In this document: piece after piece, positions 9,846 to 24,237 of the stretch
Position numbering within the stretch: the stretch's first letter is position 1
Layout of the letters: each line of letters starts with the position of its first letter
Assembly (NCBI GenBank): GCA_964424335.1
Contig: CAYRIY010000008.1
Location: forward strand, 1-61,577
DNA length: 61,577 bases
Source of the DNA: an uncultured Clostridia bacterium
GTDB lineage: Bacteria; Bacillota; Limnochordia; DTU080; RSA5
Direction of reading: 5' to 3'
Translations under genes and position numbers: made by a program
Notes under the pieces: model-generated
The model's input: only the letters and a program-made list of their open reading frames with translations
The model's database searches: none
Told to the model about the DNA's origin: nothing

Positions 9846-11147
9846 TCAGCGCGCGCCCGCGTGACTGCGACTTAGCACCTCGATCAACACCTGCGCGAGG
9901 CGCTCCGTGTTGTGCCGCACGTAATTTGAATCGTCGATGAGGTCTTCGACGATCGGTATGTATCCCGCGCTCTCGAGCTTTTCAGGTTCGGGATCGACGG
10001 GGAATGCGCCTTCGCTCTCGTACTTCGCGGCAGCGCCGTGCGAAATGCCGGCCCCGTTGAGGATCACGTACTTGATGACGCCCTCGCCGACGTGGTCCTC
10101 GATGGCGCGGACGTGGTCGTATCCGCCGTACCCGTCCGTCTCCCCGGGCTGAGTCATCACGTTGCAGACGTATATTTTGGTCGCGCTCGCCTTTTTGACC
10201 GCTTCTCCGATCCCACCCACGAGCAAGTTGGGAAGAATGCTCGTGTAAAGGCTCCCGGGTCCAAGGATAATCGCATCGGCGCGCCCGATCGCGTCCAGGG
10301 CTTCCTCCAATGGGGCGACGTCATGCGGCTCGAGGTAGACCCGCTTGATCCGCTTTCCAACCGCCGCAATCGCGCTCTCGCCGGTCACCGTTGAACCGTC
10401 GTCGAACTCGGCCCGCAAGACGACATGCTGAGACGTGCTTGGAAGCACCCGTCCTCGAATCGCCAACACCTTGCTCGACGCGCGGACCGCTTCCTCGAAA
10501 TCGCCCGTCACTTCGCTCATGGCTGCGATGAACAAATTGCCGAAACTGTGGCCTTTGAGCCCCTCGCCCAAGTGGAACCTGTGCTGGAACAATCGCTCCA
10601 TCAAGGGCTCCGTGTCCGCAAGCGCGACCAGTGTGTTGCGAATGTCCCCGGGCGGCGGAATGCCGAGCTCGTTTCTGAGGCGGCCGGAACTGCCCCCGTC
10701 ATCGGCCACGGTCACCACGGCCGTAATATTGGACGTATAGGCCTTAAGGCCGCGCAGGAGCGTCGACAACCCGGTGCCGCCGCCGATGACCACGATGTGC
10801 GGCCCTCGGCGGAGCTGGCGCTCGGCGAAGACGATGTCCGCGAGACGATCGGCGCTTTCTGGAAGAAAAATCAATATGAGGGAGCGAATCGTCTGTCTAA
10901 TGCCGATCGTAACGAGCCCGCCGCCAATGACGGCCAAGGCGATGCCGAGCGGCAGTGACACCCGTTGCGGAAAGGCGCCGAACCAGCGCGACAAAGGCCT
11001 AACGAGCAGCACTTGTAGGAGCGTAAACACCTCGACGCCGAGCGCCAGGCTGGCGCCGACGCTGAACACCACGATGCCGCAGCCCAGTAGAAAGAGCCAC
11101 CGCTTGACCCGCATCCCCGGATAGAGCCACTTGAGTGCCGATCGCAC
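9846..11147 (-). CDS. yvcK: YvcK/GlmR (UDP-GlcNAc-binding gluconeogenesis factor) with an N-terminal membrane extension
   Basis: GGGTGLSTLLRGLK, VADDGGSSGRLR, PPGDIRN, GHSFGNL, GPGSLYTS, NVMTQPGET; two hydrophobic N-terminal segments. GTG 11147 after GGAGG. Confidence 0.93.
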   Translation of the reverse strand: MRSALKWLYPGMRVKRWLFLLGCGIVVFSVGASLALGVEVFTLLQVLLVRPLSRWFGAFPQRVSLPLGIALAVIGGGLVTIGIRQTIRSLILIFLPESADRLADIVFAERQLRRGPHIVVIGGGTGLSTLLRGLKAYTSNITAVVTVADDGGSSGRLRNELGIPPPGDIRNTLVALADTEPLMERLFQHRFHLGEGLKGHSFGNLFIAAMSEVTGDFEEAVRASSKVLAIRGRVLPSTSQHVVLRAEFDDGSTVTGESAIAAVGKRIKRVYLEPHDVAPLEEALDAIGRADAIILGPGSLYTSILPNLLVGGIGEAVKKASATKIYVCNVMTQPGETDGYGGYDHVRAIEDHVGEGVIKYVILNGAGISHGAAAKYESEGAFPVDPEPEKLESAGYIPIVEDLIDDSNYVRHNTERLAQVLIEVLSRSHAGAR

Positions 11148-11179
11148 GAAATGAGGGCCTCCTTGCCTGATCGGGGCGA

Positions 11180-12076
11180 TCAATTCGCCATATCGTATGC
11201 CGAGCGGTGATCCGAGACTTTTTCGATATCACGGTGCTGGACCCCCACCCGATACCCTTCCCCCTTGAGCATCTGCCCTAGCCGCTCGCCCATGGCGACC
11301 GATCGGTGTCGCCCCCCGGTGCATCCGATCGCTACCACGAGGTGCGCCTTGCCTTCCTGCTTGTACTGGGGCAGCAAGAAGAGCAGCATACTCCCCATCA
11401 TCTCAAAGAAGCGTTCAGATACCGGCCACTTGAACACGTAGTCGAACACGTCGTCGTCACGCCCCGAGAGCGGCTGGAGCGACTCGACGTAATGAGGATT
11501 TGGAAGAAATCGAACGTCGAACACGACGTCGGCGTCGATCGGCAAACCGTACTTGAACCCGAACGAGACGATCGAGACCATCAGTCCATCGCGTCCCGGG
11601 TCGCTGTAGTGCGTTGCGATTTCCCGCTGCAACTGCCGTGTGGAAATCGCCGAGGTGTCGATGATGCGGTGCGCGCGCCCCCGAATCCCTTCGAGCCGTC
11701 GCCTTTCGTCCGCGATTGCGTCCAAGATCGCGCCTTCGGGAGCGAGGGGGTGCCTGCGCCTCGTTTCTTTGAACCTCCGCACGAGCGTTGCATCGGACGC
11801 CTCCAAGAAGAGAATCTCGTATCCGAAGCCGATCCTTTCGAGTTCGCCGAGGGAGTCCTCGAGCGAATCGAAAAAGCGTCCTCCGCGAATGTCGGAGACC
11901 AACGCGATCTTGTTTACGGTTCCGTCCGAGTGAGCGCAAAGCTCGGCAAACTTTGGAATCAGCGCGGGCGGGAGGTTGTCGACACAAAAGAAACCGAGGT
12001 CCTCGAGGCACTTCATCGCCTCGGACTTGCCGGCGCCGGACAGGCCTGTGATGATGACGAACTTGATGTCGTTCAA
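11180..12076 (-). CDS. rapZ: RNase adapter RapZ / YvcJ P-loop protein
   Basis: ITGLSGAGKS, VDNLP, RFKETRRRHPL, SFGFKYG, DVRFLPNPHY, GCTGGRHRSV. Confidence 0.96.
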   Translation of the reverse strand: MNDIKFVIITGLSGAGKSEAMKCLEDLGFFCVDNLPPALIPKFAELCAHSDGTVNKIALVSDIRGGRFFDSLEDSLGELERIGFGYEILFLEASDATLVRRFKETRRRHPLAPEGAILDAIADERRRLEGIRGRAHRIIDTSAISTRQLQREIATHYSDPGRDGLMVSIVSFGFKYGLPIDADVVFDVRFLPNPHYVESLQPLSGRDDDVFDYVFKWPVSERFFEMMGSMLLFLLPQYKQEGKAHLVVAIGCTGGRHRSVAMGERLGQMLKGEGYRVGVQHRDIEKVSDHRSAYDMAN

Positions 12077-12131
12077 GGGAAGAGCCCCCCAACCTATGTG
12101 GCGAAACTGGCGATCTGTCCATCCTTCTCAA

Positions 12132-12902
12132 TTATACAGGAAATTGCCTGGCGTTCACGATCGCCTCGCTCGTCAGTCCCGCTCGATGGGCCAATGCGGC
12201 GGCTTTGGCCAAGTCCCCCACCCGCTCCTTCGAATGAGCGTCGCTTCCGAGCGCAAACTTCGCCCCTTCGCTCTGCGCGATTTGGATGTACTCGATCGAC
12301 GTATGGTCGTGACTCGCGCTGATTTCCATCGCGCATCCCGTCTCCGCACAAGCTCTTGCAAGCTCCCTCGTGTCGATCGACAGGCGGTATCCCGGATGCG
12401 TGACGATGTGCACTCGATTGCGTCGAACCGCGTTGACGACGGCGCGCGTGTTTAGGCGGCGCGCCTCTTCGGTCCACCGGCCGCTCCATCGGCCACCGGC
12501 ATTGAGGCCGATCAGCCGAGCTCCTTCGATGACGGGATCCCAGCGCACCAGCGGGTGGAGACCGACCAGGACGATGTCAAACCGATCCTGCCACGACGGA
12601 GGCACGTCTAGTTCGCCCGTGATCGATACGATGTTCGCTTCGACGCCAAGCAGGACATCTAGGTCAGGATACGCCTCGCGCACAGCGTCAACCTCTTTGC
12701 GAATTGTGTCAAACGTGTCGAGACTTGCCACGCCAACGCCAAAGAGGCTCGCCGGTCCATGATCCGAGATGGCGACGGCGCTCAATCCCTTCTCTGCCGC
12801 AGCACGCACGTTTTCCTTGACCGAGTCGACGCCGTGACTGTGGTGGGTATGAGTGTGATAGTCCGCAAACAGTTCGTACGTCTCACATCGCACCATGTGC
12901 AC
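12132..12902 (-). CDS. PHP-domain metallophosphoesterase (YcdX-like)
   Basis: DYHTHT, ISDHG, GVEAN, THP and GSDAH metal-binding motifs. Confidence 0.88.
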   Translation of the reverse strand: MHMVRCETYELFADYHTHTHHSHGVDSVKENVRAAAEKGLSAVAISDHGPASLFGVGVASLDTFDTIRKEVDAVREAYPDLDVLLGVEANIVSITGELDVPPSWQDRFDIVLVGLHPLVRWDPVIEGARLIGLNAGGRWSGRWTEEARRLNTRAVVNAVRRNRVHIVTHPGYRLSIDTRELARACAETGCAMEISASHDHTSIEYIQIAQSEGAKFALGSDAHSKERVGDLAKAAALAHRAGLTSEAIVNARQFPV

Positions 12903-12908
12903 GCTCCT

Positions 12909-14900
12909 TTACTCCGACGCGACGTGCCAGGCTTGGGCGAGCCGCGCCCGGTTTTCGATGTCGTTTCGCGCCTCGAGGTACTTGAGCACGGTAAGGACGT
13001 ATGTGCTGTGCGACCAAGTGAGTGGAGCGACAGAGAGCGGTTTGCCGCTCGTGGGGTGCAACTGCTCGGGCAGCACACCCGACGAAAGAGCGCGATCCGC
13101 GACCCACTCGATGATCTCCCGCGCCCGCCCGAAGTCATGCTCGCGCCTTGCCTTCGAAATGTGGTATTCCGCAATCCACAGACTTGCGATGATCCACGGA
13201 TTGCCCGGCACGTCCACCCCGGACCCGAAGTACTCGTCGCCTTCGTAGCGCGCGTATCCGCCGACCGAAGTTCGCACGGCTAGGCCCGACTCGATCTGCT
13301 TCATGGTGCTTACGACCCTGGGATCATCCGGAGGCAACACTCGAAACGCGTGTACCCCATACAAGCTGCTCTCCAAGGTGGTGTCGTAACAAATCTCGCC
13401 TTTTACCCGGTAGATTCCCCGGGCAAATCGGCCGAGTTCCGGCATGTAAAGGTGTTCCAAGATGCCTTCACGCACCTCGCCGGCGCTTTTCCTAAACTTG
13501 CGGGCATGGCTCTCCTCACCGAAGATGCGGGCAAACCGCGCGGCCGCCCGGAGTCCGGCCCATACCGCCGACGCCGTAAAGGTATAGACGCCCCGCCGCT
13601 CCTCCCAAAGGTCATAGCTTTCCAAGGGCAACCCCGTCGCTTTGTCCCGGTAATTGCACATAAACTCGGCCGCCGGCTTGATAAAGCAGTCGTAAAGACT
13701 CTCGACGAATTCGAGGTCCCGGTCCATTTGAAAAAAGTGCCAAAGACTCCAGAGCACGAGCGCAGTCTCGTCTTCTTGAATGGGAAGCTGCGGACCGTCG
13801 CTCGAGAGCCACGGATGCCAGCTCGAACCGACGGAGCCGTCGGGATGATACTTGTGCCACAAGTACCCTCCTCGAGAGATGCCGCGGGCGCAAAACTTGA
13901 AAAACTCCCGGGTCAGCTCGGTGTATCCTGCCGCGTCCAAGGCGTAAGCGACGAGCGCTCCGTCTCTTGGCCACATGTAGCTGTAGTGATCCCTGTTGAA
14001 GTGCAGGATGTCGGAGTCGTTGGCGGCCGTGATCGCCCCGCCGCGATCGATCTGCGTGCGTACGATGAGAAGGCTTCGCCTGAAAAGATCGACCGCACGA
14101 GCGCTCAAGTCCAAGAAGTCCCGCTCCGCCTTGCCAAGCCACGAGCGCCAGTAAACCCGCGTCTGTTTGAGGAGTTCCTCCACACCCTCTTTACACACGA
14201 GTCGATGCAGCCGTCTGACATCGTCGAATCCGCTTCCAGCCGCAATCCAGTAATAGAGGACCGCATCCCCCAGCGGGCCGAGGTTGATCCTAAAGCTGAT
14301 CGTCGAGTCGACGGACCCTTGCGCGATCGGATTTCCCTCGAGCCAGCCGTCTTCCGCGTCGCGCCACGTTCCTTCGACGCCGCCGAAGCGCTTGGTCCCG
14401 TTGGCGTATTGAAACACGCCGTGTTCGCCCGTGCGTCCGCTCATCAGTAGGCATTTATCCCTCTTGTAGTGAAGGATGGCGTCCGTGCTCATGTCGTAGA
14501 GCGAGGTGTCTCCGATGTCGCTTTCATCGATGCAGAAATCGTGGTTGAAAAAGACGCGCACCTCTCGCTCGCTTGGCATGAGGTTATGCACGATCATCTT
14601 GCGCAGGAAAATGTCCTCCCTGTAGTGCACCGCGTCGCGCGCCTCGAGCTTCACCGCAATCTCCTGATGGGTCGCAGTCACATGAGAGACCAGCGTGTCC
14701 GGCTCGTACCGGATCGTCCTCTTCCACTTGGGGCCATGCACCCAGTCAAAGGCGCCGTCGACCCAAACGCCGATCGAATTTCTGTGTCCGAGTATGTGGT
14801 TTGATTGCCCAACCCTGGGGTAATACAAGTCCCTCATACTGAGGCGATCGTCAAAGTTGACGAGCATACGACCGTTTCCTAAAACCATATGTCGAGGCAA
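12909..14900 (-). CDS. Glycoside hydrolase family 15 (glucoamylase-like)
   Basis: LGNG...DLYYPRVG N-terminal domain, YMWPRDGA, IQEDET, DLWEER, LPEQ, PLTWSH. TTG 14900 after AAGGGGAG. Confidence 0.9.
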   Translation of the reverse strand: MPRHMVLGNGRMLVNFDDRLSMRDLYYPRVGQSNHILGHRNSIGVWVDGAFDWVHGPKWKRTIRYEPDTLVSHVTATHQEIAVKLEARDAVHYREDIFLRKMIVHNLMPSEREVRVFFNHDFCIDESDIGDTSLYDMSTDAILHYKRDKCLLMSGRTGEHGVFQYANGTKRFGGVEGTWRDAEDGWLEGNPIAQGSVDSTISFRINLGPLGDAVLYYWIAAGSGFDDVRRLHRLVCKEGVEELLKQTRVYWRSWLGKAERDFLDLSARAVDLFRRSLLIVRTQIDRGGAITAANDSDILHFNRDHYSYMWPRDGALVAYALDAAGYTELTREFFKFCARGISRGGYLWHKYHPDGSVGSSWHPWLSSDGPQLPIQEDETALVLWSLWHFFQMDRDLEFVESLYDCFIKPAAEFMCNYRDKATGLPLESYDLWEERRGVYTFTASAVWAGLRAAARFARIFGEESHARKFRKSAGEVREGILEHLYMPELGRFARGIYRVKGEICYDTTLESSLYGVHAFRVLPPDDPRVVSTMKQIESGLAVRTSVGGYARYEGDEYFGSGVDVPGNPWIIASLWIAEYHISKARREHDFGRAREIIEWVADRALSSGVLPEQLHPTSGKPLSVAPLTWSHSTYVLTVLKYLEARNDIENRARLAQAWHVASE

Positions 14901-14945
14901 CGTCGCTTCTCCCCTTACCCTCTGGCATAAAAAGGTCTCGATCCC

Positions 14946-15070
14946 GGCGCTGCTCATTTACGTGATGCAGGCGTTCTGGAGGCTTTGTAGGCCAGGGGGG
15001 CCGAAAAAGCCGGACCACGAGCCAAGAAGGCTCGGCCGAATGTCCCTGCGACACGTAAATGAGCGGCGCC
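14946..15070. repeat. 19-bp inverted repeat (18/19 match) extended by further imperfect pairing, between the divergent GH15 and DUF4912 genes
   Basis: GGCGCTGCTCATTTACGTG (14946-14964) and CACGTAAATGAGCGGCGCC (15052-15070); inner GCAGG/CCTGC and CGTTC/GAATG continue the stem; internal GAGCC/GGCTC and GGCTTT/AAAGCC hairpins. Confidence 0.85.
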
Positions 15071-15078
15071 TGCTCCCG

Positions 15079-15108
15079 GAATAGGGTCTCCCAGCTAGGG
15101 AAAACCTA
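15079..15108 (+). promoter_or_regulatory. Possible SigF/SigG-type (forespore) promoter for DUF4912-GH57
   Basis: GAATA-15 nt-GGAAAACCTA, close to the GYWTA/GHATA-N15-GGNRANANTW pattern. Confidence 0.35.
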
Positions 15109-15135
15109 CCCCACGTCACGTCAGGTTCGAAAGGT

Positions 15136-15681
15136 TTGATACGATTGCCAACCCAGCACCGTTCGCACGGCGTGCACAGCTTGACCGATCTACAAGATAC
15201 CGAGCGCTTCCTCTGGAAAGAGAGGAAAGTGGGCGCCTTCGAGCTGCCGATGAGGTACGGACGGAGCCACGTCACGCTCATCGCCCGCGATCCGGATTGG
15301 GTTTACGCCTATTGGGAGTGTGAGTCGAAAAGGGCGACGCTCGCCCTTTTTCGGCACGATCCCGAGACGAGGGAGTCTGCCCCTGTCTTTCAAACCGGTG
15401 TGGCGGGCGTCGGATCGTACTATATTCCGGTCCCAAGCGCCGGAGACGAGTATGCTGCACGGATCACGGACGAAGGCGGAAACGCGTTCGAAAGCCGTCC
15501 TGTTAAGACTCCGCCCGGCCGGTTATCGGATGTTCTCGACATCGGCTGGCTTTCGATCGACGAGGTCTTCATGTGGGAGCCGTTCGAGTTTGTCGACGCC
15601 TCTTCTCCTGGGATGCGCCTCCACGGCAAGAAGCGCCTGAAGCTCGATAACGGGAGCTCATACAGTAGCGTCCGCCGGTAA
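15136..15681 (+). CDS. DUF4912-domain protein
   Basis: ELPMRYGRSHVTLIARDPDWVYAYWE motif, SRPVKTPP and a Ser-rich tail; directly upstream of a GH57 branching enzyme. Start uncertain (15136/15145). Confidence 0.8.
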   Translation: MIRLPTQHRSHGVHSLTDLQDTERFLWKERKVGAFELPMRYGRSHVTLIARDPDWVYAYWECESKRATLALFRHDPETRESAPVFQTGVAGVGSYYIPVPSAGDEYAARITDEGGNAFESRPVKTPPGRLSDVLDIGWLSIDEVFMWEPFEFVDASSPGMRLHGKKRLKLDNGSSYSSVRR

Positions 15682-15708
15682 GGATCCAAACGTAAAGGAT
15701 GGTTGTCG

Positions 15709-17328
15709 ATGGGTCGTCCTGAAGGCTCCAAAGGATATTTCGCCTTGGTTCTCCATGCGCATCTTCCCTTTGTCCGGCATCCGCACAATCACAATCACCT
15801 CGAGGAGCTTTGGCTCTTTGAAGCGATGACCGACACCTACTTGCCGTTGATCGAACTGATGGACGGATGGGCCCGGGATGGCGTCCCGTTTCGCATTGCC
15901 ATGTCCGTGACTCCGACGCTCGCCTCGATGCTGCGCGACCCACTGTTGAAAAAGCGGTACGTCCAGCACCTCGATCGATCGGTCGCGCTCAGTCACCGGG
16001 AGATGGCGCGGCACAAGGCGGATCCTCGGCTATACGGGCTTGCCCGGATGTACCGGGACCGCTTTGAAAAGGCCCGTCACATGTTTGTGGAGAGGCTTGG
16101 GACGGACATCCTCAGCGCGTTTAAGCGCCTCCAAGGGCACGGACTCGAATTGCTGGCGTCCGCCGCGACTCACGGGTACCTTCCGCTGCTCGAACCACAG
16201 CGCTCCGCAGTGCAGGCACAAATCCGAGGGGGCATCGACTGCTTTAGGCAGGTCTTTGAGACCGATCCAAAGGGATTTTGGCTGCCCGAGTGCGCGTTTT
16301 TTCCGGGCCATGACGAGGTCCTCGCCCAGGAAGGGATCCGCTATACGGTCGTCGAGACGCACGGCGTGCTTCATGGCATTCCAAGGCCCAGATACGGGCA
16401 TTACGCGCCCGTTTACTCCCCGGCCGGCCTCGCGTTCTTTCCGAGAGATCCCGAGACCTCAAAGCAGGTGTGGAGCGCCAACGAAGGGTATCCGGGCGAC
16501 TTCGACTACCGGGAGTTTTACCGGGACGTCGGACACGATCTCCCCTGGGAAGAGGTGGCGCCGTTTCTCCCCTGGGGCGTGAGGGCGGACACAGGATTGA
16601 AGTACTTTCGCATCACCGGCCACACAAATGAGAAGGATCTCTACGACCCCGACCGCGCTAAGGCCAAGGTGAAGCGCCACGCCGATGATTTCGTGGGAAA
16701 CCTCGGGAGACAGATCGCACACGCTGCGGCCCACATGGACCGCAAGCCGATCGTCGTCGCTCCATACGATGCGGAGCTCTTTGGCCATTGGTGGTTTGAA
16801 GGCCCTGCGTTCCTCGACGAAGTGGTGCGTCAAGCTCGATGGAACGACGACCTCGAGCTTGTCTCGCCTCTCGAGTACCTCGAGCGGCATCCCGCCAATC
16901 AAGTCGTCCAGGTCTCGGAGTCAAGCTGGGGATACAAGGGGTACCACGAAGTGTGGCTCGACGAATCAAACGACTGGATCTACCGTCACCTGCACGAGTG
17001 CGCCCGTCGGATGGAGGACCTCGTCGACCGCCATCAGAGCTCGGATGGCCTCGTAAAGCGAGCGCTCGATCAGGCGGCCAAGGAGCTGATGCTCGCGCAA
17101 AGTTCGGACTGGGCCTTTATCCTCAAGTCCGGGACCACGGTCCAATACGCCGAGCGGCGGATTCGGGAGCACCTCTCGAATTTCTTGAAAATCGAGTCAC
17201 AAGTTGAGAGCGGCTCGATCGATGCGCATTGGCTCGCATCGATCGAAGAGACGGGCGCCCCCTTGAAGCACATCCACTCGGAACTTTACGTTACCGCCTT
17301 CCATCAGCTCGCGGGCGCTCGGCCTTGA
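15709..17328 (+). CDS. GH57 1,4-alpha-glucan branching enzyme (DUF1957 C-terminal domain)
   Basis: [29 protein letters not shown] (nucleophile Glu), [14 protein letters not shown] (acid/base Asp), AQSSDWAFI. Confidence 0.93.
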
Positions 17329-18460
17329 CAAGGAGCTCGCCCTCAGCGGCCTCCTTGGGGGCTCTTTTGCCGGTTGGACTCTTGCCGCTTGGACTATTGC
17401 CATTTGGAGCGACAAAACTCTCAGGCTCGAGGTGGACGCCGTCACCGAGCGCCGCTCCCTCGAGCACGGCGGCGTCCCGCCCAACGACGGTAAAGCGTCC
17501 GACCGCCGCTCCCAGGACCGTGGCGCCCGATTCGACGACGGCCCCTTCGAGGACCACCGATCGCTCGACCACGGCGCCCCGCTCGACCCGGCTATAGGGC
17601 CCGAGCACCGTCCCTGGTCCAACCCGGGATTCGGCCGATATGCGGGCGCCTCGCCCCGCCATGATGGGGGGAACCAGCGTGGCGCCAGGTTCGACGATTG
17701 CGTCGGAATCGATCCAAACGCCGTTCCCGTTGCCATCGAGCGCCGATAGGCGGACCTTTCCGTACAGGACGTCGATCTGGGAGCGTATGAACTGTTTGCA
17801 GTCGCCAATGTCCGACCAGTACCCGCTTCCCCGAAAAGCGTAAAGGGGCGCCTCGCTTGCCAGCATCGCCGGAAACAGGTCGCGGCTAAAATCAAAGAAA
17901 GCGCCCATCGGACAACGTTCAAGCACGCTCGGTTCCAACACGTAAATCCCTGTGTTCACGGTATTGCTGAAAACCTCTTCAGGGGCGGGCTTTTCAAGGA
18001 AACGAACGATTCGGCCCGATGGCGCCGACTCGACGATTCCAAAGGGAAGCGGGTTTTCGACTTCGGTAACCACGATGGTCGCGTCGGCGCCGGTCGCCTT
18101 GTGCCGATCGACGGCGTCACGCAATCGAAAATCAGTGAGGCAGTCGCCGCTGATGATCAAGAATGTGTCGTCCAAGTATTGCTCGAGCTGTTTGACGCCT
18201 CCTGCGGTGCCAAGGGGCCTAGGTTCTCGCACATAGCGGATGCTAAGGCCCAGCTCTTCGCCCGTGCCGAGCCCTCGTTCCATCTGCTCGGGCATGAAGT
18301 GGGTCGTCACGAGCACCTCGTCGAACCCGTTTTCTTTTAGCAGCCTGAGGATATGGTAGGCGACTGGGCGGTTCGCGATCGGGACCAAGGGCTTTGGACA
18401 CTCCTTGGTCAATGGTCTCAGGCGGGTCCCCTGTCCCCCCGCCATCACGACAGCCTTCAC
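17291..18460 (-). CDS. NDP-sugar pyrophosphorylase (mannose-1-P guanylyltransferase-like) with left-handed beta-helix
   Basis: [51 protein letters not shown], hexapeptide repeats; overlaps the GT4 stop codon. Confidence 0.9.
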
Positions 18461-19689
18461 ACGCGCTCAACTCCCGAGTGATTTTCCATCGATCGGAGTT
18501 CGCCGGCCCTCCGGGTCTTACCATGATCTTGGTGACCCGTGACGACCTCGCGGTAAACCTCGAGCGTGGCCTCGCTGATCGGGCCCCAGTCGTACGTCGA
18601 GGCAACCAGCCTCCTTCCCGCATTCCCCAAGGCCTCGCGCTTTTGGGGTGATCCAAGGAGAGAAGAGAGCTCCACGGCGAGACCAAGTGCATCTCCAGGC
18701 TCGAAAAGGATGCCGGTGCGACCGTGTTCGATCACCTCAGCGAAGCCCCCCGTGCGCGCCGCAATGACCGGGGCGCCAAAGGACATGGCTTCGAGCGCGA
18801 CGATGCCGAATGGCTCGTAGCGGCTGGGAAACACCGCAGCGTCGGCCAGACGGTAGAGTCTATTCCGCTCCTCATCGCTGATATAACCAAGAAACCTTAC
18901 GCTCTTGCCGATACCGAGCCGTTTGACCAGGTCTTTGAGTGCATGCTCCTCGGGCCCGCGCCCTGCAATGAGGAGCTCCGCCCTCGGGTGATGGGCAAGC
19001 GTCTTTTGAAATGCATCGATGAGCGTGTCGACGCCCTTTTCGTACACGAGGCGGCCGACGTAAAAGACGACGGGGTGGTCGGGGCGTTCCAGACCTGGTT
19101 CGCTTGTGCTGATCGGGTCCTGGCCTGGAATGTCCACGCCGTTTGGCACGACGCGCAACTTGTCCGTCGGAAGCTGAAAGACCAGCTCGAGCTCTCGCTT
19201 CATTGCGTTGCTACAGCAGATGACTCGCCACGCCTCAAACCCGAGCCACCACTCAATGTCACTGATGTGTCGCTGCAGATCGGTGTACAATCCTCCGTTT
19301 CTGCCGTACTCCGTGGCGTGAATGGTGGCGACGAGCGGGATGCCCAGCCCATGCTTTACCGCCCTGGCCGCATGGGCGGTGAGCCAATCATGCGCGTGGA
19401 CCAAGTCAAATCTTTGCCCCTCCGAAACCTCGCGCAAAACACCCTGGAGCAGGCAGTTGTTCACCTTCGCGACACGCTCGGGAAACTCTCTTGCCGGGGG
19501 ACTTGCGTCCGGGACGCGACGAACGACCAGATTGCCTTGTTCCTCGCGCTCCGCGCCGCCCTCGTGCGGCGTCACGACCGTCACACGGCGCCCTCGGTCT
19601 GCCATGGCCCGACTGAGTGAGGTTACGTGTCGGCCGAGTCCGCCGACGATGTTGGGATCGTACTCCCAGCTAAGGATGAGAATGCGCAT
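18457..19689 (-). CDS. GT4 glycosyltransferase (Rv3032-like alpha-glucosyltransferase)
   Basis: [61 protein letters not shown]. Confidence 0.9.
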
Positions 19690-19722
19690 AGCGGTTCACA
19701 GCCCCCGGACACAGTTTGTCCG

Positions 19723-19753
19723 TAGTCTTTACGGTCTGTGAGGCCCATTATGC
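19723..19753 (-). promoter_or_regulatory. Possible SigF/SigG-type promoter for GT4-nucleotidyltransferase
   Basis: Minus strand GCATA-16 nt-GTAAAGACTA. Confidence 0.3.
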
Positions 19754-19895
19754 AAATGAGGAGTCCCAGGCGATTTCCCCGCCGATTCCCCGATCCATAC
19801 GTTAGACCAAGGCCTTAGCTTTGCGATCGACGGATTTGTGGCGAGCAGCAAGTGGGGACGGTAGCCAATCGGTTTTTCAAAAGGAGGGGATCAAC

Positions 19896-20141
19896 GTGCC
19901 GGCGCCGCCCGATCAATTCCAAAAAAAGACGTACGTGCGCCTGCCCTTGGCCGACGACTATTTGAGGGACGAAAACGACCGCGGCGTGCTCGCCGAGATC
20001 AAGAGATCGTTCGAACGCCCGATCCTCCATGTGACAATTTCGGACGCACACGAGTCGCACGAGGAGCGTCAGGAGCCGGGCCGAAACAAGCGCCCGACGA
20101 TGACGCCGAAGACGACAAGGAGCGCAGCAATGCCCAAGTAG
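19896..20141 (+). CDS. Hypothetical small protein (81 aa)
   Basis: Strong SD AAGGAGGGG 6 nt before GTG 19896; fills an otherwise empty gap; its 3' end overlaps the convergent DOMON gene. No family recognised. Confidence 0.5.
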   Translation: MPAPPDQFQKKTYVRLPLADDYLRDENDRGVLAEIKRSFERPILHVTISDAHESHEERQEPGRNKRPTMTPKTTRSAAMPK

Positions 20142-20965
20142 ATCGAGGGGCTGATGCGAAATGGATCAAACCCGCCCACGGGATAGACGGTCGGCGGCTC
20201 CCCTCCCGCCGCCAACTGGACGCTCTGTCTCCTTGGACCCCAGCTCGGAGCGATCACGTCGACGACACTTGGAAACCGCGTCCCATCCCCACGAAGCAGC
20301 CAGCGGGTATCGTCCGAAACGACTGCCCTGTACTCGTCGGCGCCCAGGCCGTCAAAACTTCCCACGAGGACGTAATAGCGCCAGTTGGGTCGGGGCGGCG
20401 AAAGGATGTCGGAAGGGATGCGCACTTCGATCACCCTGTCCTTTGCCGACGCCGTGACCCTAATCTCGCGCTGCCTGCCTGGCGAGTCGGGCGGATCGGT
20501 CCACGTATAAAGGGCTGTGCCGCCGAAAGGCGCCACTCTAAGCCAAAGATGCCATGGATGCTTCGGCGAGAAAACGACACCGGCGCCTTCGCGAAAAAGG
20601 GTCGTCTTGCCGCCCTGCTCGCCCGTGTGTACATAGACGTCGATCCTTTGATGAAAAAAACCTTCAGGCGGGTTGAACGGCCCCGGGTCGACGACCCCCA
20701 TGGTAAAGCGAAAGAGGACCGCACCGTCTTGGACGCTTACCTCAAACTCTTGGAGGTCGAAGTAGCCGCTGTGTGGATGAAACACGTCGTCCATCGGGTA
20801 GGAGACGCCGCCTGCACCGAAGTCGTCGCCCTTTGCATCCTTGATGCGAACGTGCACCGTTCGCCCTTCGGCGCCCGCGATCGCCCCGTGGGACGCTGCG
20901 ACCGCCAGCGTTACGACTAAGGCAAGCGCGCTCATGGCAATTCGTCGGTGCGCAATGGGGATCAT
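20069..20965 (-). CDS. Glucodextranase C-terminal DOMON-like carbohydrate-binding protein, exported and membrane-anchored
   Basis: Signal-peptide-like N terminus, DAKGDDFGAGGVSYP and GFFHQRIDVYV motifs, WRYYVLVGSFDG, C-terminal hydrophobic helix with a basic tail. Confidence 0.78.
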   Translation of the reverse strand: MIPIAHRRIAMSALALVVTLAVAASHGAIAGAEGRTVHVRIKDAKGDDFGAGGVSYPMDDVFHPHSGYFDLQEFEVSVQDGAVLFRFTMGVVDPGPFNPPEGFFHQRIDVYVHTGEQGGKTTLFREGAGVVFSPKHPWHLWLRVAPFGGTALYTWTDPPDSPGRQREIRVTASAKDRVIEVRIPSDILSPPRPNWRYYVLVGSFDGLGADEYRAVVSDDTRWLLRGDGTRFPSVVDVIAPSWGPRRQSVQLAAGGEPPTVYPVGGFDPFRISPSIYLGIAALLVVFGVIVGRLFRPGS

Positions 20966-21003
20966 GCTAATCGGTATGCGGCAGGCGACATCAGGTATGA
21001 ATC

Positions 21004-21888
21004 CTATGCATCAGCCAGATTGAGCATGGCAAAGGCGCGTTCTGCCAGGCCGACAGGGCCCTCACCGCGCACGGCGACTCGCTGCACGGGCGAATCGAGG
21101 TCGACCGCGACCGCGGCCTCAAAGGTCCAACCCAAGTCGTCCCGCCTACAGAGGGCGCCGACCGGAGCGTGGCACCCACCGCGGATGAGTGCGAGCAAGC
21201 GGCGCTCCTCCAACACCGCCAACCGGTCACCCGGGTCGTCGACCGCCTCGAGCGCCGCACGAAGCTTTACATCGGCCGACCGACATTGGACGGCGAGAGC
21301 CCCTTGCCCCGGGGCCGGCAACATGATCGAGAACGGAATGGGACGAGCGGTCACCTCGATGCCGCTTCGCCTTATTCCCGCAACCGCCAGCACCGTGGCG
21401 TCGTAGGCGCCGCTTTCGACCTTGGCAGCGCGCGTCTCGACATTTCCCCGGATTCCCTCGAAGCAGAGGTCGGGACGGGCTGCCGCAAGCTGCACCTGCC
21501 GCCTTGGGGATCCCGTTCCCACTTTGGCCCCGTCCGGCAGGCTCGCCAAATCCAGCCCGTCCTTCGTGACGAGCGCGTCCCGTGGGTCTTCTCTCTTTGG
21601 AACAGCTGCCACCACAAGGCCGTCGGTCTCCTTCACCGGGAGGTCCTTGAGGCTATGCACCGCGACATCGATGTCACCGTTTTGGAGAGCGCGCTCGACT
21701 TCGGTAACGAATACGCCGCGCCCGCCCATCTGAGGCAAGGGGGTTTGGCGATCGATGTCGCCCTCGGTGCGCATAGGCACCACCTCAAATCGCAGCTCCG
21801 GGTGTGCACGCTGCAGCCTTTCGATCACCCACCCAGTCTGTGCCTGAGCTAATCTACTCGCACGGGTGCCGACGCGAATCACGGTCAA
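21004..21888 (-). CDS. hemC: Hydroxymethylbilane synthase
   Basis: GTRASRLAQAQ, TEGD, GRGVF, VHSLKD, GTGSPRR, IRGNVETR, PAPGQGAL, GGCHAPVG (cofactor Cys). Confidence 0.96.
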   Translation of the reverse strand: MTVIRVGTRASRLAQAQTGWVIERLQRAHPELRFEVVPMRTEGDIDRQTPLPQMGGRGVFVTEVERALQNGDIDVAVHSLKDLPVKETDGLVVAAVPKREDPRDALVTKDGLDLASLPDGAKVGTGSPRRQVQLAAARPDLCFEGIRGNVETRAAKVESGAYDATVLAVAGIRRSGIEVTARPIPFSIMLPAPGQGALAVQCRSADVKLRAALEAVDDPGDRLAVLEERRLLALIRGGCHAPVGALCRRDDLGWTFEAAVAVDLDSPVQRVAVRGEGPVGLAERAFAMLNLADA

Positions 21889-22039
21889 TCCCCCATATCA
21901 CATTGGAAATCCGTCTGCCACACATCCCCGCTTGCCGCCCACTAGGGCCGGCGATGCCGGGCGCAAAGATCTTCATCCGCGCCTTGACGCTTGCCGTGCT
22001 GACAAGGTCGGGCGGCCAAGCGAATCGCTTTATGACGTT

Positions 22040-22864
22040 TCAAAAGCTGTGGACCCCATGAGTCAAGAGGCTGATCCCAAGGTAGTTGAAGATGACGGCA
22101 AAAAAACCGACGACGGCGAGAATCGCCGCTCGACGCCCCCTCCACCCCCACGCGAGCCGTCCAAGGATCGCCGCCGCATAGAAGATCCACGTAAGAATCG
22201 CCCAGAGCATTTTGGGATCTGCGGGGACGTACGATCCCCAAACTTCCTTCGACCAGATGGCGCCGACCGCGAGGCCGACGGAGAGCAGAGGAACTCCCCT
22301 CCCGACCAGCCCCCACGAGAGCCTTTCGAGCCGCATCAGCGACGGGAGGCTAAAGTGCATGAACGTGAGCCGCTTTCGCTTGAGCTCTTGTTCTTGCACG
22401 AGGTATAAAAAGCCGGCAAGCGCCGCCAAGGCAAACGCGCAATATCCTAAAAACATTAGCCCCACATGCACGCCGACCCACGGGCTCTGCAAGATCGGCG
22501 GCGCTCCCCCGACGCCGACCGGGCGAAACGACGCGTAAAGTGCGCCGACCGAGATGAGCGGAAACACAAAGGCTCCTCCGACGCGAAGCTTCCACTTGAG
22601 CTCTACAATGAAGTAAAGCGTCGCCAGGAGCCACACCACCACAATAAGGCTGTCGAAGAACGAGCCGATAGGCACCCTTCCCGCAAAGATCGTACGCAAG
22701 ACGCCCCCGGTCGTGAGCGCAACGTAACCGATCAAGGCAAGCACCGACGCCCAAAAGCCCGTGTCGTTTCGCCGATGGCGCACGAAACTTACGTACATGG
22801 CGGACGAAGCCGAAAAAGCGATCCCCGAAATGAGCAGGATCGCCAGAAGAATTGGACCTACCAA
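22040..22864 (-). CDS. hemX: HemX/CcsA-family membrane protein
   Basis: About 8 TM segments, VHV, YLVQEQELKRK, GAIWSKEVWG..DPK; lies between hemA and hemC as in hemAXC. Confidence 0.85.
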   Translation of the reverse strand: MVGPILLAILLISGIAFSASSAMYVSFVRHRRNDTGFWASVLALIGYVALTTGGVLRTIFAGRVPIGSFFDSLIVVVWLLATLYFIVELKWKLRVGGAFVFPLISVGALYASFRPVGVGGAPPILQSPWVGVHVGLMFLGYCAFALAALAGFLYLVQEQELKRKRLTFMHFSLPSLMRLERLSWGLVGRGVPLLSVGLAVGAIWSKEVWGSYVPADPKMLWAILTWIFYAAAILGRLAWGWRGRRAAILAVVGFFAVIFNYLGISLLTHGVHSF

Positions 22865-24237
22865 CCCGCACGCCCCTCCAGGGCGGCCTTGCCAAACGCC
22901 TTCAATCTCACGTCGACGCGGGCACGCTCAGCTTTCGGCTCCTCTGCCCGCTCGGCATCCGCCGCTTCGGGGCCGCCCTCCTCCCCTTCCAAGTCGAGAT
23001 CGAAAAGATCGCCGACCATCTCCAGGAGATCGTTCTGGTCCGCCACGGCCGCCTTGAGTTTGAGCGTCGGTTCATGGAGCAACTTTCCTGTGATGGCCCT
23101 AGAAAGCGAGCGAATGTGCTCTTTTTCCCGATCGGAAAGGTGATCCAGCCGCCGGAGCACCCGCTCGACTTCCGCCTCTGCTGTCTCGTAAACCTTTTGC
23201 CTCAGCGCTTTGATCACAGGTGCGGCGCGACGCTCGTCCATCCAAACGGCAAAGCGCTTTGCTTCCTCGGCAACGATCTTCTCGGCGTCGGCGATGTACC
23301 GCCTGCGCTCTGCGAGGTTTGCGTCGACGACGTTTTTCAAGTCGTCGATGTTGTAAAGAAACACGCCGCCAAGGTCGGCCGCGCCCGCTTCGATATCCCT
23401 CGGCACGGCGATGTCGATCAAAAAGAGCGGTCGGCCGCGGCGCCCGTGCATCGCAGCGGCGATGTCATGTTTTGAAAGCAACGGCCGCCTCGCTCCGGTG
23501 GATGTGATGACGATATCCGCCTTTGAAAGAAGGCGCGGCAGTTCGGCAAGGTCCGAGGACTCTCCGCCGACCAAGCTCGCAAGCCGCTGGGCATGATCAG
23601 CGCTTCGGTTTGCGACGAAAATCGAAGACACACCTTGCTCCGCCAGGTTTTTCGCCGCCAATTCGGCCATCTTTCCGGCGCCGATGATCAGGACGCACTT
23701 GCCCTTTAGGTCATCGAAAATCTTTCTGGCAAGCTCGACGGCCGCGTAACTGACCGAGGCGGCGCCTTCGCCGATGGGCGTCTCCGTTCTCACCCGCTTG
23801 CCCACCCGAGCCGCCTGGTTGAACATCTGCGCAAGATAGGGCCCGATCGTGCCGGCGCTTTGAGCAATCGAAAAGGTCTGGCGCACCTGGCCGAGCACTT
23901 GACTTTCACCAACGATCAGCGAATCGAGACCGGCGGAGACCGAAAACAGATGCCTTGCGGCATCGAGGTCCGTCATGACGTACAGTGCGTCCCGTACGGA
24001 CTCGCCCTTGCCGAGCGACTCAAAAATGCGCACACCGATCGACTGAGCAGCGAGGGAGGACTCGGCAACCAGGTAAAACTCCGTGCGGTTGCATGTCGAA
24101 AGGACCGCTGCCTCTTCGATCGGGTGCGTTGTGATCGCTCCGAGGAGCCGGGCAGCTTGATCATCGCTTACCGACACCGCTTCTCGCACGGAGACGGGTG
24201 CAGTTTTATGGTTGAGACCGACCGTAACGACGTGCAT
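22858..24237 (-). CDS. hemA: Glutamyl-tRNA reductase
   Basis: GLNHKTAPVSVRE, LSTCNRTE, GLDSLIVGESQVLGQV, IGAGKM, DIAVPRDI. Confidence 0.97.
   Translation of the reverse strand: MHVVTVGLNHKTAPVSVREAVSVSDDQAARLLGAITTHPIEEAAVLSTCNRTEFYLVAESSLAAQSIGVRIFESLGKGESVRDALYVMTDLDAARHLFSVSAGLDSLIVGESQVLGQVRQTFSIAQSAGTIGPYLAQMFNQAARVGKRVRTETPIGEGAASVSYAAVELARKIFDDLKGKCVLIIGAGKMAELAAKNLAEQGVSSIFVANRSADHAQRLASLVGGESSDLAELPRLLSKADIVITSTGARRPLLSKHDIAAAMHGRRGRPLFLIDIAVPRDIEAGAADLGGVFLYNIDDLKNVVDANLAERRRYIADAEKIVAEEAKRFAVWMDERRAAPVIKALRQKVYETAEAEVERVLRRLDHLSDREKEHIRSLSRAITGKLLHEPTLKLKAAVADQNDLLEMVGDLFDLDLEGEEGGPEAADAERAEEPKAERARVDVRLKAFGKAALEGRAGW

Follow-up and report, generated by a model that had tools for sequence, protein, structure and literature searches.

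A conserved five-gene module that probably serves glycogen-type alpha-glucan metabolism in a Clostridia genome with no glgA, glgB or glgC detected above cut-off

Whether a bacterium can activate, elongate, branch and degrade a glycogen-like polymer with enzymes that all differ from the classical ones is the question raised by a group of carbohydrate-related genes in an uncultured Clostridia bacterium of compost (GCA_964424335.1, contig CAYRIY010000008.1). The window, meaning the whole stretch of DNA that was analysed, is 61,577 nucleotides long, and the genes lie within its positions 12909–20965. A preliminary description had presented them as a GlgA/GlgB/GlgC-independent module of six genes, arranged in divergent and convergent units and inserted between housekeeping genes. 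As shown in Table 1, the positions and families of all six genes agree with that description, as does the layout, with GH15 divergent from DUF4912-GH57, and GH57 convergent with the nucleotidyltransferase (NTP) and GT4. The inserted position was likewise recovered, with PHP, rapZ and yvcK/CofD at one end and hemC, a ccsA-like gene and hemA at the opposite end.

Table 1. Features of the alpha-glucan locus (positions in the window).
Feature	Position	Strand	Assignment and remarks
GH15	12909–14957	-	Pfam Glyco_hydro_15, 100.7 bits; 682 aa
Divergent intergenic region GH15/DUF4912	14958–15135		presumed promoters of both units
DUF4912	15136–15681	+	PF16258, 37.5 bits (cut-off 29.4); 181 aa from TTG 15136
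GH57	15703–17328	+	Glyco_hydro_57, 126.6 bits, and BE_C, 115.1 bits; 541 aa from TTG 15703
NDP-sugar nucleotidyltransferase (NTP)	17291–18460	-	NTP_transferase, 182 bits, and hexapeptide/LbH repeats; 389 aa
Terminator-like hairpin	17339–17362	+	consensus match only; 11 nt past the GH57 stop
GT4	18457–19689	-	Pfam Glycos_transf_1 and Glyco_transf_4; 410 aa
Glucodextran_C ("DOMON") protein	20069–20965	-	Pfam Glucodextran_C, 153 bits; 298 aa

The units are tightly packed. The GH57 start lies 21 nt beyond the DUF4912 stop, with ATG 15710 as an alternative start; the 3′ ends of GH57 and NTP overlap by 38 nt; and the GT4 stop overlaps the NTP start by 4 nt, which suggests translational coupling of these two genes. 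The hairpin behind GH57 consists of an 8-pair stem, five of its pairs being G-C, and a T-rich tail; the divergent intergenic region gave neither a sigma-70 consensus match nor an Rfam match.

The independence from GlgA, GlgB and GlgC was confirmed by a profile search of the whole assembly (3.88 Mb in 203 contigs, with a completeness of 98.5% and a contamination of 4.3%), in which no glgA, glgB or glgC exceeded the curated cut-offs and no GT5 GlgA, GH13 GlgB, GT35 phosphorylase, GH77 or GlgE was found. The proteins of this genome that score highest with the glgA and glgC profiles are GT4 and NTP of the cluster itself. The sole GH13 of the genome, a divergent protein of 1004 aa, is alpha-amylase-like and is not GlgB, GlgE or TreS, and the only full GH57 is that of the cluster. 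When this genome and 40 relatives were considered together (n = 41), DUF4912 occurred with neither GlgA nor GlgB in 24; six relatives have GlgA and no GH13 GlgB, and DUF4912 is present in all six.

Five of the genes (GH15, DUF4912, GH57, NTP and GT4) are a real conserved module. The order yvcK-rapZ-PHP-GH15, divergent from DUF4912-GH57, which in turn converges with NTP-GT4, is kept in 3/3 genomes of the same family. Two further samples were used, both composed of related and thus non-independent genomes: 35 loci of the class centred on DUF4912, and a wider set consisting of the 80 closest of 596 relatives, which is biased to the GH57 type of the window. GT4 (at least 220 bits) was present in 24 of the 35 class loci, with four more partial at region edges, NTP (at least 290 bits) in 12 and GH15 (at least 760 bits) in 10. 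Among the 80 closest of the 596 relatives, GT4 (40–49% identity) and NTP (39–48%) converge on GH57 in 10 loci, all Bacillota-type, and GH15 homologues above 600 bits adjoin GH57 in four. In other Bacillota the parts are fused pairwise: GH57 and GT4 form a single protein of 936–961 aa in all four long frames scanned (L087, L129, L130 and L131), and NTP is joined to PGM_PMM in six of seven long NTP genes scanned. These occur in compact operons of the form DUF4912, GH57::GT4 and then either NTP-transferase::phosphohexomutase or GH15, the latter as in L131. The genes therefore do co-occur in relatives according to this neighbourhood analysis, and the similar clusters expected in other Firmicutes exist. 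In Acidobacteria, GH57 is fused to a GT5 glycogen synthase in 3/3 frames scanned, so that a bona fide GlgA stands where Bacillota have GT4. Among relatives, an alpha-glucan setting is also seen in L023 and L048, where CBM53 starch-binding proteins adjoin GT4, and in L058, where GH13 and GH77 adjoin DUF4912. Parts of all five genes were also matched at 99% identity or more by RNA-library contigs of one compost sample, where DNA carry-over is possible, and one contig of 603 nt bridges the NTP/GT4 junction; expression of the module in compost is thus possible.

The sixth gene does not share this conservation. The Glucodextran_C protein begins with a hydrophobic stretch resembling a signal and carries a hydrophobic anchor at its C-terminus, its gene is separated from GT4 by terminator-like hairpins, and it occurs in 0 of the 80 closest of 596 relatives and in 3/35 class loci. 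It is a secreted, membrane-anchored, lineage-specific neighbour and not a module member, so the surface DOMON protein of the preliminary description was removed from the set. None of the five module proteins, where checked, has an export signal, and no signal peptide was seen at the N-terminus of GH15. Among NCBIfam models, GH15 scores best with the "oligosaccharide amylase" TIGR01577 (343 bits against a cut-off of 820), and we propose a cytoplasmic glucoamylase-like exo-alpha-glucosidase, which would be the sole polymer-degrading enzyme.

The nucleotidyltransferase, a GMPP/GMPPB-like protein, has a GGQGTRL motif at residues 8–14 and a C-terminal left-handed beta-helix. Its best NCBIfam model is man1P_GTase_Rv, a mannose-1-phosphate guanylyltransferase (263.7 bits, below 440), its score against the glgC model is 111 bits (below 425), and its closest solved relatives are 8x7s, a "UTP-glucose-1-phosphate uridylyltransferase" (E 6e-53), and then GDP-mannose pyrophosphorylases (E 3e-50). 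It is proposed to make an NDP-glucose donor; the nucleotide is not assignable from these matches, and mannose is possible. GT4, a retaining enzyme, is the candidate alpha-1,4-glucan synthase replacing GlgA. It matches the Pfam family Glyco_transf_5 (starch synthase; 77 bits), has an EX7E motif within a 12-residue stretch, and begins with a 22-residue segment that carries the SWEY motif noted in the preliminary description, a motif presumably shared with mycobacterial Rv3032. GT4 nevertheless stays under every curated cut-off, and other products have to be weighed. The top PDB match is GlgM (6tvp, E 1e-30), which is not a polymerase, followed by a sucrose-phosphate-synthase-like protein, and the top NCBIfam model is glgA_Coryne, whose subfamily contains GlgM. 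GT4 could accordingly be a GlgM-like maltose-1-phosphate synthase or a synthase of another disaccharide or solute (trehalose, sucrose-phosphate or glucosylglycerate), whose product GH15 hydrolyses, with GH57 only loosely related by adjacency; the GH15 family includes trehalases, and weak TreH1/TreH2 and MGH1-like matches were obtained. However, the glgA_Coryne score is 157.7 bits where 302 are needed, the trehalase models reach merely 69–74 bits on GH15 against the 343 bits of the oligosaccharide amylase, neither GlgE nor TreS nor another GH13 partner for GT4 was found in the genome, and the GH57::GT4 proteins would be difficult to account for if GH57 did not act on what GT4 makes. We regard this alternative as quite improbable.

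An even smaller chance is given to NTP and GT4 making a mannose-based envelope glycan through GDP-mannose and a mannosyltransferase, merely beside an unrelated glucan-degrading set of DUF4912, GH57 and GH15. Besides the guanylyltransferase model of NTP, this explanation draws on GDP-mannose-dependent PimA/PimB among the solved relatives of GT4 (E 1e-20 to 1e-23), and the rest of the genome was not seen to encode a GDP-mannose pyrophosphorylase of the ManC type. It is opposed by the GH57::GT4 fusions, by the rank of GT4 as the top glycogen synthase profile match of the genome, by the recurrence of the NTP::PGM-GT4 pair beside GH57 in 10 of the 80 wider loci and 12 of the 35 class loci, and by the five proteins having no export signals where checked.

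GH57 has T. maritima AmyC (2b5d) as its best solved relative (452 bits, residues 11–524 aligned), whereas the loop-bearing enzymes of Thermococcus, Pyrococcus and Thermus score 247–287 bits, with alignment gaps of 13 and 11 residues opposite their beta5-beta6 strands and flexible loop. These alignments place the enzyme in the loop-less AmyC type. E196 (WLPEC) and D356 (YDAEL), the presumed catalytic residues, do not vary among 45 sequences. The family assignment made for this gene, GH57 with BE_C, stands, and the protein is a putative branching enzyme. According to the sections of PMC9291813 on this class, loop-less AmyC-type enzymes show little or no branching of amylose in vitro, and it was proposed there that they are not glycogen-branching enzymes at all.

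DUF4912 is a near-obligate upstream partner of this loop-less GH57 type across phyla. It is the adjacent upstream ORF of GH57 on the same strand in 71/74 testable loci of many phyla, and GH57 lies directly downstream of it in 33 of the 35 class loci (33/33 testable; the other two end at contig ends). A sample of 151 genomes from across the phylum comprised 77 with DUF4912 as well as BE_C, two with BE_C only, none with DUF4912 only and 72 with neither, so that 77/79 genomes having BE_C also have DUF4912; in both exceptions 19 residues are inserted into GH57 where the loop lies. The DUF4912 of the window is a weak, shortened and divergent member, with its PF16258 score standing against 80–150 bits in relatives, a weak CBM48 match (E 0.02) and an uncertain exact start; conservation in the same-family genomes begins at about residues 8–15. 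The AlphaFold2 model has a beta-sandwich core at residues of about 40–135 (pLDDT above 90 in most blocks, whole-model mean 75.6), whose fold matches only generic Fn3/Ig. No DUF4912::GH57 fusion was found. We propose a non-catalytic partner of GH57, adjacency being no proof of binding; the subunit role suggested earlier is retained in its tie to GH57, but the link is much closer than that role implies and extends well beyond this cluster.

Comparison with known systems brings in the last alternative. As described in parts of PMC2674218, M. tuberculosis Rv3030-Rv3037c also places a GT4 alpha-1,4-glucosyltransferase (Rv3032) next to a GH57 "branching" gene (Rv3031) outside the classical glg operon, and PMC9291813 assigns Rv3031 to the loop-less class and describes it as inactive on amylose. 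The cluster may thus make a short specialised alpha-glucan oligosaccharide, as Rv3030-Rv3032 do for methylglucose lipopolysaccharide, and not bulk glycogen, with GH57 introducing one defined alpha-1,6 link or trimming and GH15 recycling. Two Bacillota genomes with the order GT4, GH57, GH57-like and SAM-methyltransferase, beside AdoHcy hydrolase, indicate that methylated-glucan-like clusters exist in this phylum. However, these clusters have a different, loop-bearing GH57 and no DUF4912, while methyltransferase, acyltransferase and glucosyl-3-phosphoglycerate genes are absent from the six genes and their flanks. The same GH57 type is fused to a classical GT5 glycogen synthase in Acidobacteria, starch-binding CBM53 proteins, GH13 and GH77 lie nearby in relatives, and a genome with no other glycogen machinery offers no other storage candidate. 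This alternative is considered unlikely, if the least unlikely of the three. Compared with the Rv3030-Rv3037c locus, the window lacks methyltransferase and acetyltransferase genes and adds a nucleotidyltransferase, GH15 and DUF4912, and mycobacteria also keep GlgB, GlgE, GlgM and GlgC, none of which the present genome has. T. maritima AmyC (TM1438), a loop-less GH57 glycogen branching enzyme with high hydrolytic activity, has no loop or beta5-beta6 insertions, like the GH57 of the window; it was characterised alone, and T. maritima, whose control genome also gave a DUF4912 match, has a classical GT5 GlgA, unlike the genome studied here.

Among archaea, glycogen loci that combine GH15, GH57 and GT4 are described in the relevant sections of a recent review for Sulfolobus acidocaldarius, Picrophilus torridus and Methanoculleus bourgensis (Chem Rev 2024, PMC11046441). 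There, GH15 is a catabolic glycogen enzyme, Sulfolobus glycogen needs GH57, and a GT4 that lies amid glycogen genes, described as confined to a few Euryarchaeota, is the putative glycogen synthase where GT3/GT5 is missing; DUF4912 is not reported for archaeal loci in those sections. No published account or biochemistry of the present cluster was found in the literature, in line with the earlier statement that no reconstitution is known.

Taken together, the five genes probably encode a cytoplasmic non-classical glycogen-type alpha-glucan system replacing GlgC, GlgA, GlgB and GlgP/GlgX. The activate-elongate-branch-degrade reading given earlier is upheld in this form by the absent classical genes, the co-occurrence and the fusions, but with the DOMON protein left out. 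On the basis of family, context and fusions, from which all steps are inferred, a stand-alone phosphohexomutase encoded elsewhere in the genome would supply glucose-1-phosphate, the GMPP-like nucleotidyltransferase would convert it into NDP-glucose, and the GT4, probably coupled to it in translation, would extend alpha-1,4 chains. The loop-less GH57 and DUF4912 would then remodel or branch these chains, DUF4912 most likely being a stoichiometric accessory subunit for substrate binding, enzyme positioning or replacement of the missing loop, and GH15 would free glucose at non-reducing ends in a genome where no phosphorylase, debranching enzyme or GH77 was found. The logic would be that of the classical GlgC-GlgA-GlgB/GlgP-GlgX pathway, in which a sugar-1-phosphate is activated and the polymer elongated, branched and degraded; the family would be exchanged at each step, with a GMPP-like nucleotidyltransferase in place of GlgC, GT4 in place of GT5, a loop-less GH57 with DUF4912 in place of GH13, and hydrolysis by GH15 substituting for phosphorolysis and debranching.

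As shown in the table below, the ORF listing together with Pfam and NCBIfam scans recovers the six carbohydrate-related genes that the preliminary description had placed in the window, and the gene layout and flanks agree with its picture of divergent and convergent units set between housekeeping genes. The DUF4912 stop lies 21 nt ahead of GH57, the GT4 stop shares 4 nt with the start of the GMPP-like nucleotidyltransferase (NTP), the convergent GH57 and NTP genes overlap over 38 nt, and GH15 and DUF4912 diverge with 178 nt between them; the GT4 and GH57 genes are within 2.4 kb of each other. PHP-rapZ-yvcK flanks the group on one side, the opposite flank being made up of hemC, a ccsA-like gene and hemA, and the G+C content is even at about 60%, so that base composition gives no trace of a foreign island. 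Neither an Rfam family nor a sigma-70-like promoter was found in 12000–21500.

Genes and neighbouring features of the alpha-glucan cluster (positions in the window)
Feature	Position	Strand	Product and domain evidence
rapZ-yvcK (glmR-like) pair	9846–12076		
PHP-domain phosphoesterase	12132–12902	-	YcdX/PolX-PHP-like
GH15	12909–14957	-	682 aa; Glyco_hydro_15, 100.7 bits (Pfam)
DUF4912	15136–15681	+	181 aa; PF16258, 37.5 bits (cut-off 29.4)
GH57	15703–17328	+	541 aa; Glyco_hydro_57, 126.6 bits; BE_C, 115.1 bits
NTP	17291–18460	-	389 aa; NTP_transferase and left-handed beta-helix
NTP C-terminal tail	17291–17430	-	~45 residues, Pro/Gly/Lys/Ala-rich, low complexity
GT4	18457–19689	-	410 aa; GT4 Pfam domains
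Glucodextran_C protein	20069–20965	-	298 aa; PF09985, 153 bits

The cluster was proposed to work independently of GlgA, GlgB and GlgC, and the genome search agrees: in contrast to organisms with the classical GlgC-GlgA-GlgB pathway, none of the three exceeds its curated cut-off in the 3.88 Mb assembly (203 contigs, 98.5% complete, 4.3% contaminated). The top match to GT5 GlgA (TIGR02095) is the cluster GT4 itself at 84.6 bits against a cut-off of 328, that to GH13 GlgB (TIGR01515) reaches 22.8 bits against 464, and that to GlgC (TIGR02091) is the cluster NTP at 108.8 bits against 425; GT35 phosphorylase and GH77 also gave no match in this genome. None of its five NTP_transferase genes scores over the cut-off for a GalU, GlgC or ManC type, and its stand-alone phosphohexomutases are two: the window encodes GlmM, and contig C34 a PMM/PGM. 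A hidden classical pathway is unlikely because five independent searches missed at 98.5% completeness, though an incomplete assembly cannot prove absence. The window GH57 is the only full GH57 of the genome, and the sole GH13 domain belongs to a 1004-aa amylase-like protein on another contig (G000:C44, locus L009, 223–3237, minus strand), with weak partial matches to TreS, TreZ and amylase models and with amylases or glucosidases as PDB relatives; GlgB, GlgE or TreS character was not found in it. Its alpha-amylase domain starts at about residue 250, and the ~430 residues beyond the match hit no Pfam family. The GlgE pathway, with a GlgM-type GT4, was rejected as GlgE (GH13_3) and TreS were not found in the genome, and a trehalose (TreT/TreH) route was rejected as none of the 60 top PDB relatives found for the GT4 is a TreT and the trehalase scores of the GH15 are weak.

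Two sets of loci were used for comparison: the "wider loci", which are the best 80 of 596 GH57 relatives (46–54% identity, many phyla), and the "class loci", which are 35 DUF4912-centred loci from relatives in the class. One refutation envisaged at the outset was that the genes do not co-occur in relatives; the order yvcK-rapZ-PHP-GH15, divergent from DUF4912-GH57, which converges with NTP-GT4 ahead of hemC, is kept in all three same-family genomes. Across the class loci, GT4 lies within ~5 kb of DUF4912 in 24 of 35, with four more partial at region edges, while NTP occurs in 12 and GH15 in 10. The rapZ-yvcK pair, regulators of carbohydrate and cell-wall precursor flux, shows class-wide synteny and adjoins the glucan module in 16 of the 35 class loci (L092–L128) as well as in the window. 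The PHP gene, 6 nt downstream of GH15, always adjoins rapZ in the class loci; 8/80 wider loci, none with rapZ or yvcK nearby, have a PHP homologue (24–31% identity) no more than 10 kb from GH57, and a Pfam PHP protein follows GH15 in locus L087 and precedes DUF4912 in locus L040. This phosphoesterase may belong to the module as a sixth member with phosphatase function, or its position may simply reflect conserved gene order.

The expectation that similar clusters exist in other Firmicutes is confirmed, chiefly by fused operons. In ten wider loci of Bacillota type, GT4 (40–49% identity) and NTP (39–48%) converge on GH57 as in the window, and the NTP there is ~780–830 aa long with phosphoglucomutase/phosphomannomutase domains (four of five scanned). 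Compact operons read DUF4912, GH57::GT4, NTP::PGM in loci L129 and L130 and DUF4912, GH57::GT4, GH15 in locus L131 and in Desulfothermobacter acidiphilus (L087). BE_C, the C-terminal domain of GH57 branching-type enzymes, lies in frames of 941–1054 aa in eight genomes of a 151-genome sample, and all four long frames scanned (three of these and L087) are GH57::GT4 fusions. In Bryobacterales (Acidobacteria), 3/3 proteins scanned join this GH57 type to a classical GT5 glycogen synthase domain. These GH57+BE_C::GT5 proteins of ~1030–1065 aa (L019, L059 and L073; L029 and L065 by length) have DUF4912 ahead of them. In Acidobacteria a true GlgA thus holds the position that the GT4 has in Bacillota, the best available argument for the GT4 as a chain-elongating alpha-glucan synthase, and CBM53 starch-binding proteins, GH13, GH77 and a second GH57 near relatives' loci likewise fit alpha-glucan metabolism. 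In the variant of this family the fusions are undone: the NTP of the window has no mutase half, and its GT4 and GH57 are separate genes. The Pro/Gly/Lys/Ala-rich tail of the NTP, which overlaps GH57 at its 3' end, may be what is left of a linker to the phosphohexomutase half kept in relatives.

On this basis, GH15, DUF4912, GH57, NTP and GT4 form one module, which probably encodes a non-classical cytoplasmic glycogen-type pathway, in which the GMPP-like transferase would make NDP-glucose, the GT4 would elongate alpha-1,4 chains, the GH57 with DUF4912 would branch or remodel them, and the GH15 would hydrolyse them to glucose. Each of these catalytic specificities, and any physical contact between GH57 and DUF4912, we infer from family membership, conservation and fusions. 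The NTP has the NTP_transferase fold with a GGxGTRL motif and a C-terminal left-handed beta-helix; it scores 263.7 bits against the mannose-1-phosphate guanylyltransferase model NF052502, below the cut-off of 440, while its top PDB relative was deposited as a UGPase, so that homology is split between the two specificities, and a literature search found no paper on PDB 8X7S. That NTP and GT4 serve a mannose-based envelope pathway next to a glucan set unrelated to them, which the guanylyltransferase likeness would suit, is very improbable, as the fusions and the missing partner genes speak against it. The GT4 reaches 157.7 bits against the GlgM-containing model TIGR02149, below its cut-off of 302, and GlgM is its top PDB relative (E 1e-30); that it is a GlgM-like or solute synthase is nevertheless quite unlikely, given the same fusions and missing partners. 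The GH15 scores 343 bits against TIGR01577 (cut-off 820) and 75 against the glucan 1,4-alpha-glucosidase model (cut-off 742), and carries LWEE and LPEQ, which we take to be the catalytic motifs.

The GT4 presumably also resembles Rv3032 in its motifs. It has been reported that GT4 and GH57 are paired in mycobacteria (PMC2674218), so the comparison with Rv3032/Rv3031 holds for the pairing itself, and PMC11046441 flags the same pairing as unresolved in archaea. Like an Rv3032/Rv3031-type locus, the window has a GT4 clustered with a loop-less GH57, which would be compatible with an MGLP-like oligosaccharide product; unlike it, the window has no SAM-dependent methyltransferase or acyltransferase gene among the 13 ORFs from 9846 to 24237, and the fusions and missing partner genes also speak against such a product, which is judged unlikely.

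The closest solved relative of the window GH57 is Thermotoga maritima AmyC (2b5d, 452 bits), well ahead of the branching enzymes of T. kodakarensis (287 bits), P. horikoshii (271) and T. thermophilus (247). Its alignment with AmyC is gap-free at the positions of the flexible loop and of beta5-beta6, whereas against the T. kodakarensis enzyme there are gaps of 13 and 11 residues at beta5-beta6 and the flexible loop, and similar ones against P. horikoshii. By alignment, the enzyme is thus assigned to the AmyC class without flexible loop and beta5-beta6 (loop-less). E196 (WLPEC) and D356 (YDAEL) are invariant in 45 sequences and are presumably nucleophile and acid/base. As reported by Xiang et al. 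(PMC9291813), 2296 of 2497 GH57 "GBE" sequences (92%) lack both loop and beta5-beta6, the loop is required for branching in vitro, and the in vivo substrate and role of loop-less GH57 are an open problem; tested loop-less members, AmyC included, showed very low or no branching (9–24 mU/mg or none), and M. tuberculosis Rv3031, which belongs to this class, was inactive. The preliminary description had named a GH57 branching enzyme: the family is right, with Glyco_hydro_57 and BE_C both matched, but an established brancher it is not, in view of the poor branching described for its class (PMC9291813).

The neighbourhood analysis of GT4, GH57 and DUF4912 shows where the strongest coupling lies. Of the 80 wider loci, 74 had upstream sequence, and in 71 of these the ORF on the same strand that ends just before GH57 carries DUF4912 (E 1e-8 to 1e-43; misses L047, L052 and L079). 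These loci come from Bacillota, Desulfobacterota, Omnitrophota, Acidobacteriota, Myxococcota, Verrucomicrobiota, Planctomycetota, Nitrospirota, Elusimicrobiota and further phyla; the carriers in culture include Desulfotruncus arcticus DSM 17038 (L048) and Moorella thermoacetica (L056). Conversely, GH57 is directly downstream of DUF4912 in 33/35 class loci, and the other two end at a contig edge (33/33 testable). In the sample of 151 genomes spread evenly over the phylum, DUF4912 and BE_C are both present in 77 and both absent in 72, BE_C occurs without DUF4912 in two, and DUF4912 without BE_C in none; these counts are descriptive and carry no statistic because kin are not independent. The two BE_C-only genomes are of one family; in their GH57 (31–34% identity), 19 residues are inserted at the position of the loop, and the AmyC-type insertion of ~17 residues is absent. 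Among control genomes, BE_C matched in Synechococcus, Thermus and Thermotoga. DUF4912 gave a match in Synechococcus and in Thermotoga and none in Thermus, which has a loop-bearing enzyme. DUF4912 is thus the constant companion of the loop-less GH57 type. It is present in all six relatives that have GlgA and lack GH13 GlgB, and it occurs with neither GlgA nor GlgB in 24 of 41 genomes (our own and 40 relatives); these genomes have no candidate brancher other than the loop-less GH57. The GH57 of the two BE_C-only Bacillota genomes lies in loci L137 (G096:C1) and L138 (G051:C12), which have an AdoHcy hydrolase gene divergent from a run of GT4, loop-bearing GH57, an 835-aa GH57-like protein and a SAM-methyltransferase, with DUF4912 absent, and look like a candidate methylated-glucan (MGLP-like) cluster outside actinobacteria. 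A profile search for DUF4912 proteins of greater length gave two, neither fused to GH57, which is weak evidence on such fusions; frames of 953 and 1168 aa over DUF4912 (genomes G002 and G033) were rejected as fusions, being antisense frames across GH15 in GC-rich DNA.

DUF4912 was described as having no established function, and this holds for the full-text literature searched, which yielded no functional paper and largely excludes subscription journals. The window copy is short and divergent and reaches the Pfam gathering score; its nearest protein-atlas clusters are all DUF4912 (score 0.92–0.93). An AlphaFold2 model from a 52-sequence alignment (mean pLDDT 75.6) has a beta-sandwich as its confident core (residues ~40–135), for which fold searches returned only generic Fn3/Ig beta-sandwiches (Foldseek TM ~0.5–0.65 on target; VIA-align Z at most 9.5, a common range). 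No carbohydrate-binding module stood out in these searches, and the Pfam CBM48 match (E 0.02) is too weak for use. The consensus aromatic motif RDPYWLxAYWE reads RDPDWVYAYWE in the window copy, and P53, W60 and P126 (window numbering) are invariant. The ends of the protein vary: an N-terminal Rho_N domain is found in 7/74 relatives, several Desulfotomaculia-type copies begin with hydrophobic helices followed by basic residues, and 13/74 bear a weak Glucodextran_B-like C-terminal beta-sandwich, one over the Pfam cut-off. The Rho_N-bearing form in cyanobacteria is noted as a "Rho-like" protein of unknown role in PMC13613805. A constant core with swappable end modules would point to an adaptor or an accessory subunit more than to an enzyme.

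A further reading, offered tentatively and with the balance against it, is that DUF4912 might be the missing obligate subunit of loop-less GH57, giving in trans the lid or substrate-holding function that loop-bearing enzymes have in cis, so that in a widespread GlgB-independent glycogen pathway the pair, and not GH57 by itself, would act as the true branching enzyme. If so, DUF4912 would perhaps dock on the ~17-residue AmyC-type insertion, published verdicts of "inactive" or "mainly hydrolytic" loop-less GH57 would be artefacts of assaying GH57 alone, and granule synthesis would be positioned in the cell by the variable modules at the N-terminus of DUF4912, namely membrane helix, Rho_N and basic tails.

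The surface DOMON protein of the preliminary description falls outside the module. With its signal-like N-terminus and its hydrophobic anchor at the C-terminus, the Glucodextran_C protein is extracytoplasmic, the other five proteins having no export signal; two terminator-like hairpins separate its gene from GT4; and homologues occur in 0/80 wider loci, in 3/35 class loci (always just beyond GT4) and in one of three same-family genomes. It was rejected as a member on topology, terminators and distribution, the last of which fits inherited gene order better than function. No NCBIfam match was found for it. Glucodextranase-accessory-like fragments are scattered round the loci, B in DUF4912 proteins and C in this protein.

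Near-identical DNA (at least half of sampled words) is present in 14 runs; the holders come from 13 studies and are mostly metagenomes of compost, manure, sludge and animal gut. Parts of GH15, DUF4912, GH57, NTP, GT4 and Glucodextran_C are matched at ≥99% identity by contigs assembled from two RNA libraries of a single compost sample, and one contig of 603 nt crosses the NTP/GT4 junction; since RNA libraries can contain DNA, and strand and level cannot be read from the contigs, these matches do no more than hint at transcription of the cluster genes, and stretches without such contigs are uninformative either way.

GH57 branching enzymes are used to modify starch, so DUF4912, if an activating subunit, would have practical value there. 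Its near-perfect coupling falls on exactly the GH57 class whose role specialists call open (PMC9291813). The cluster in the window is one more variant, unfused and minimal, of a recurrent, uncharacterised system, for which the literature search, with subscription journals largely outside it, found no describing paper, which is not proof of absence. The special value of the window is that its genome has nothing else to make or break glycogen, and the source organism offers a natural background in which a loop-less GH57 is the only candidate brancher. Bacterial glycogen metabolism is taught as GlgC-GlgA-GlgB, or as GlgE. Since GlgA and GlgB are both missing from this genome and from 23 of the 40 relatives searched, which have the GT4/GH57/DUF4912 set alone, glucan storage in a large part of Bacillota probably follows this route, one that nobody has reconstituted.
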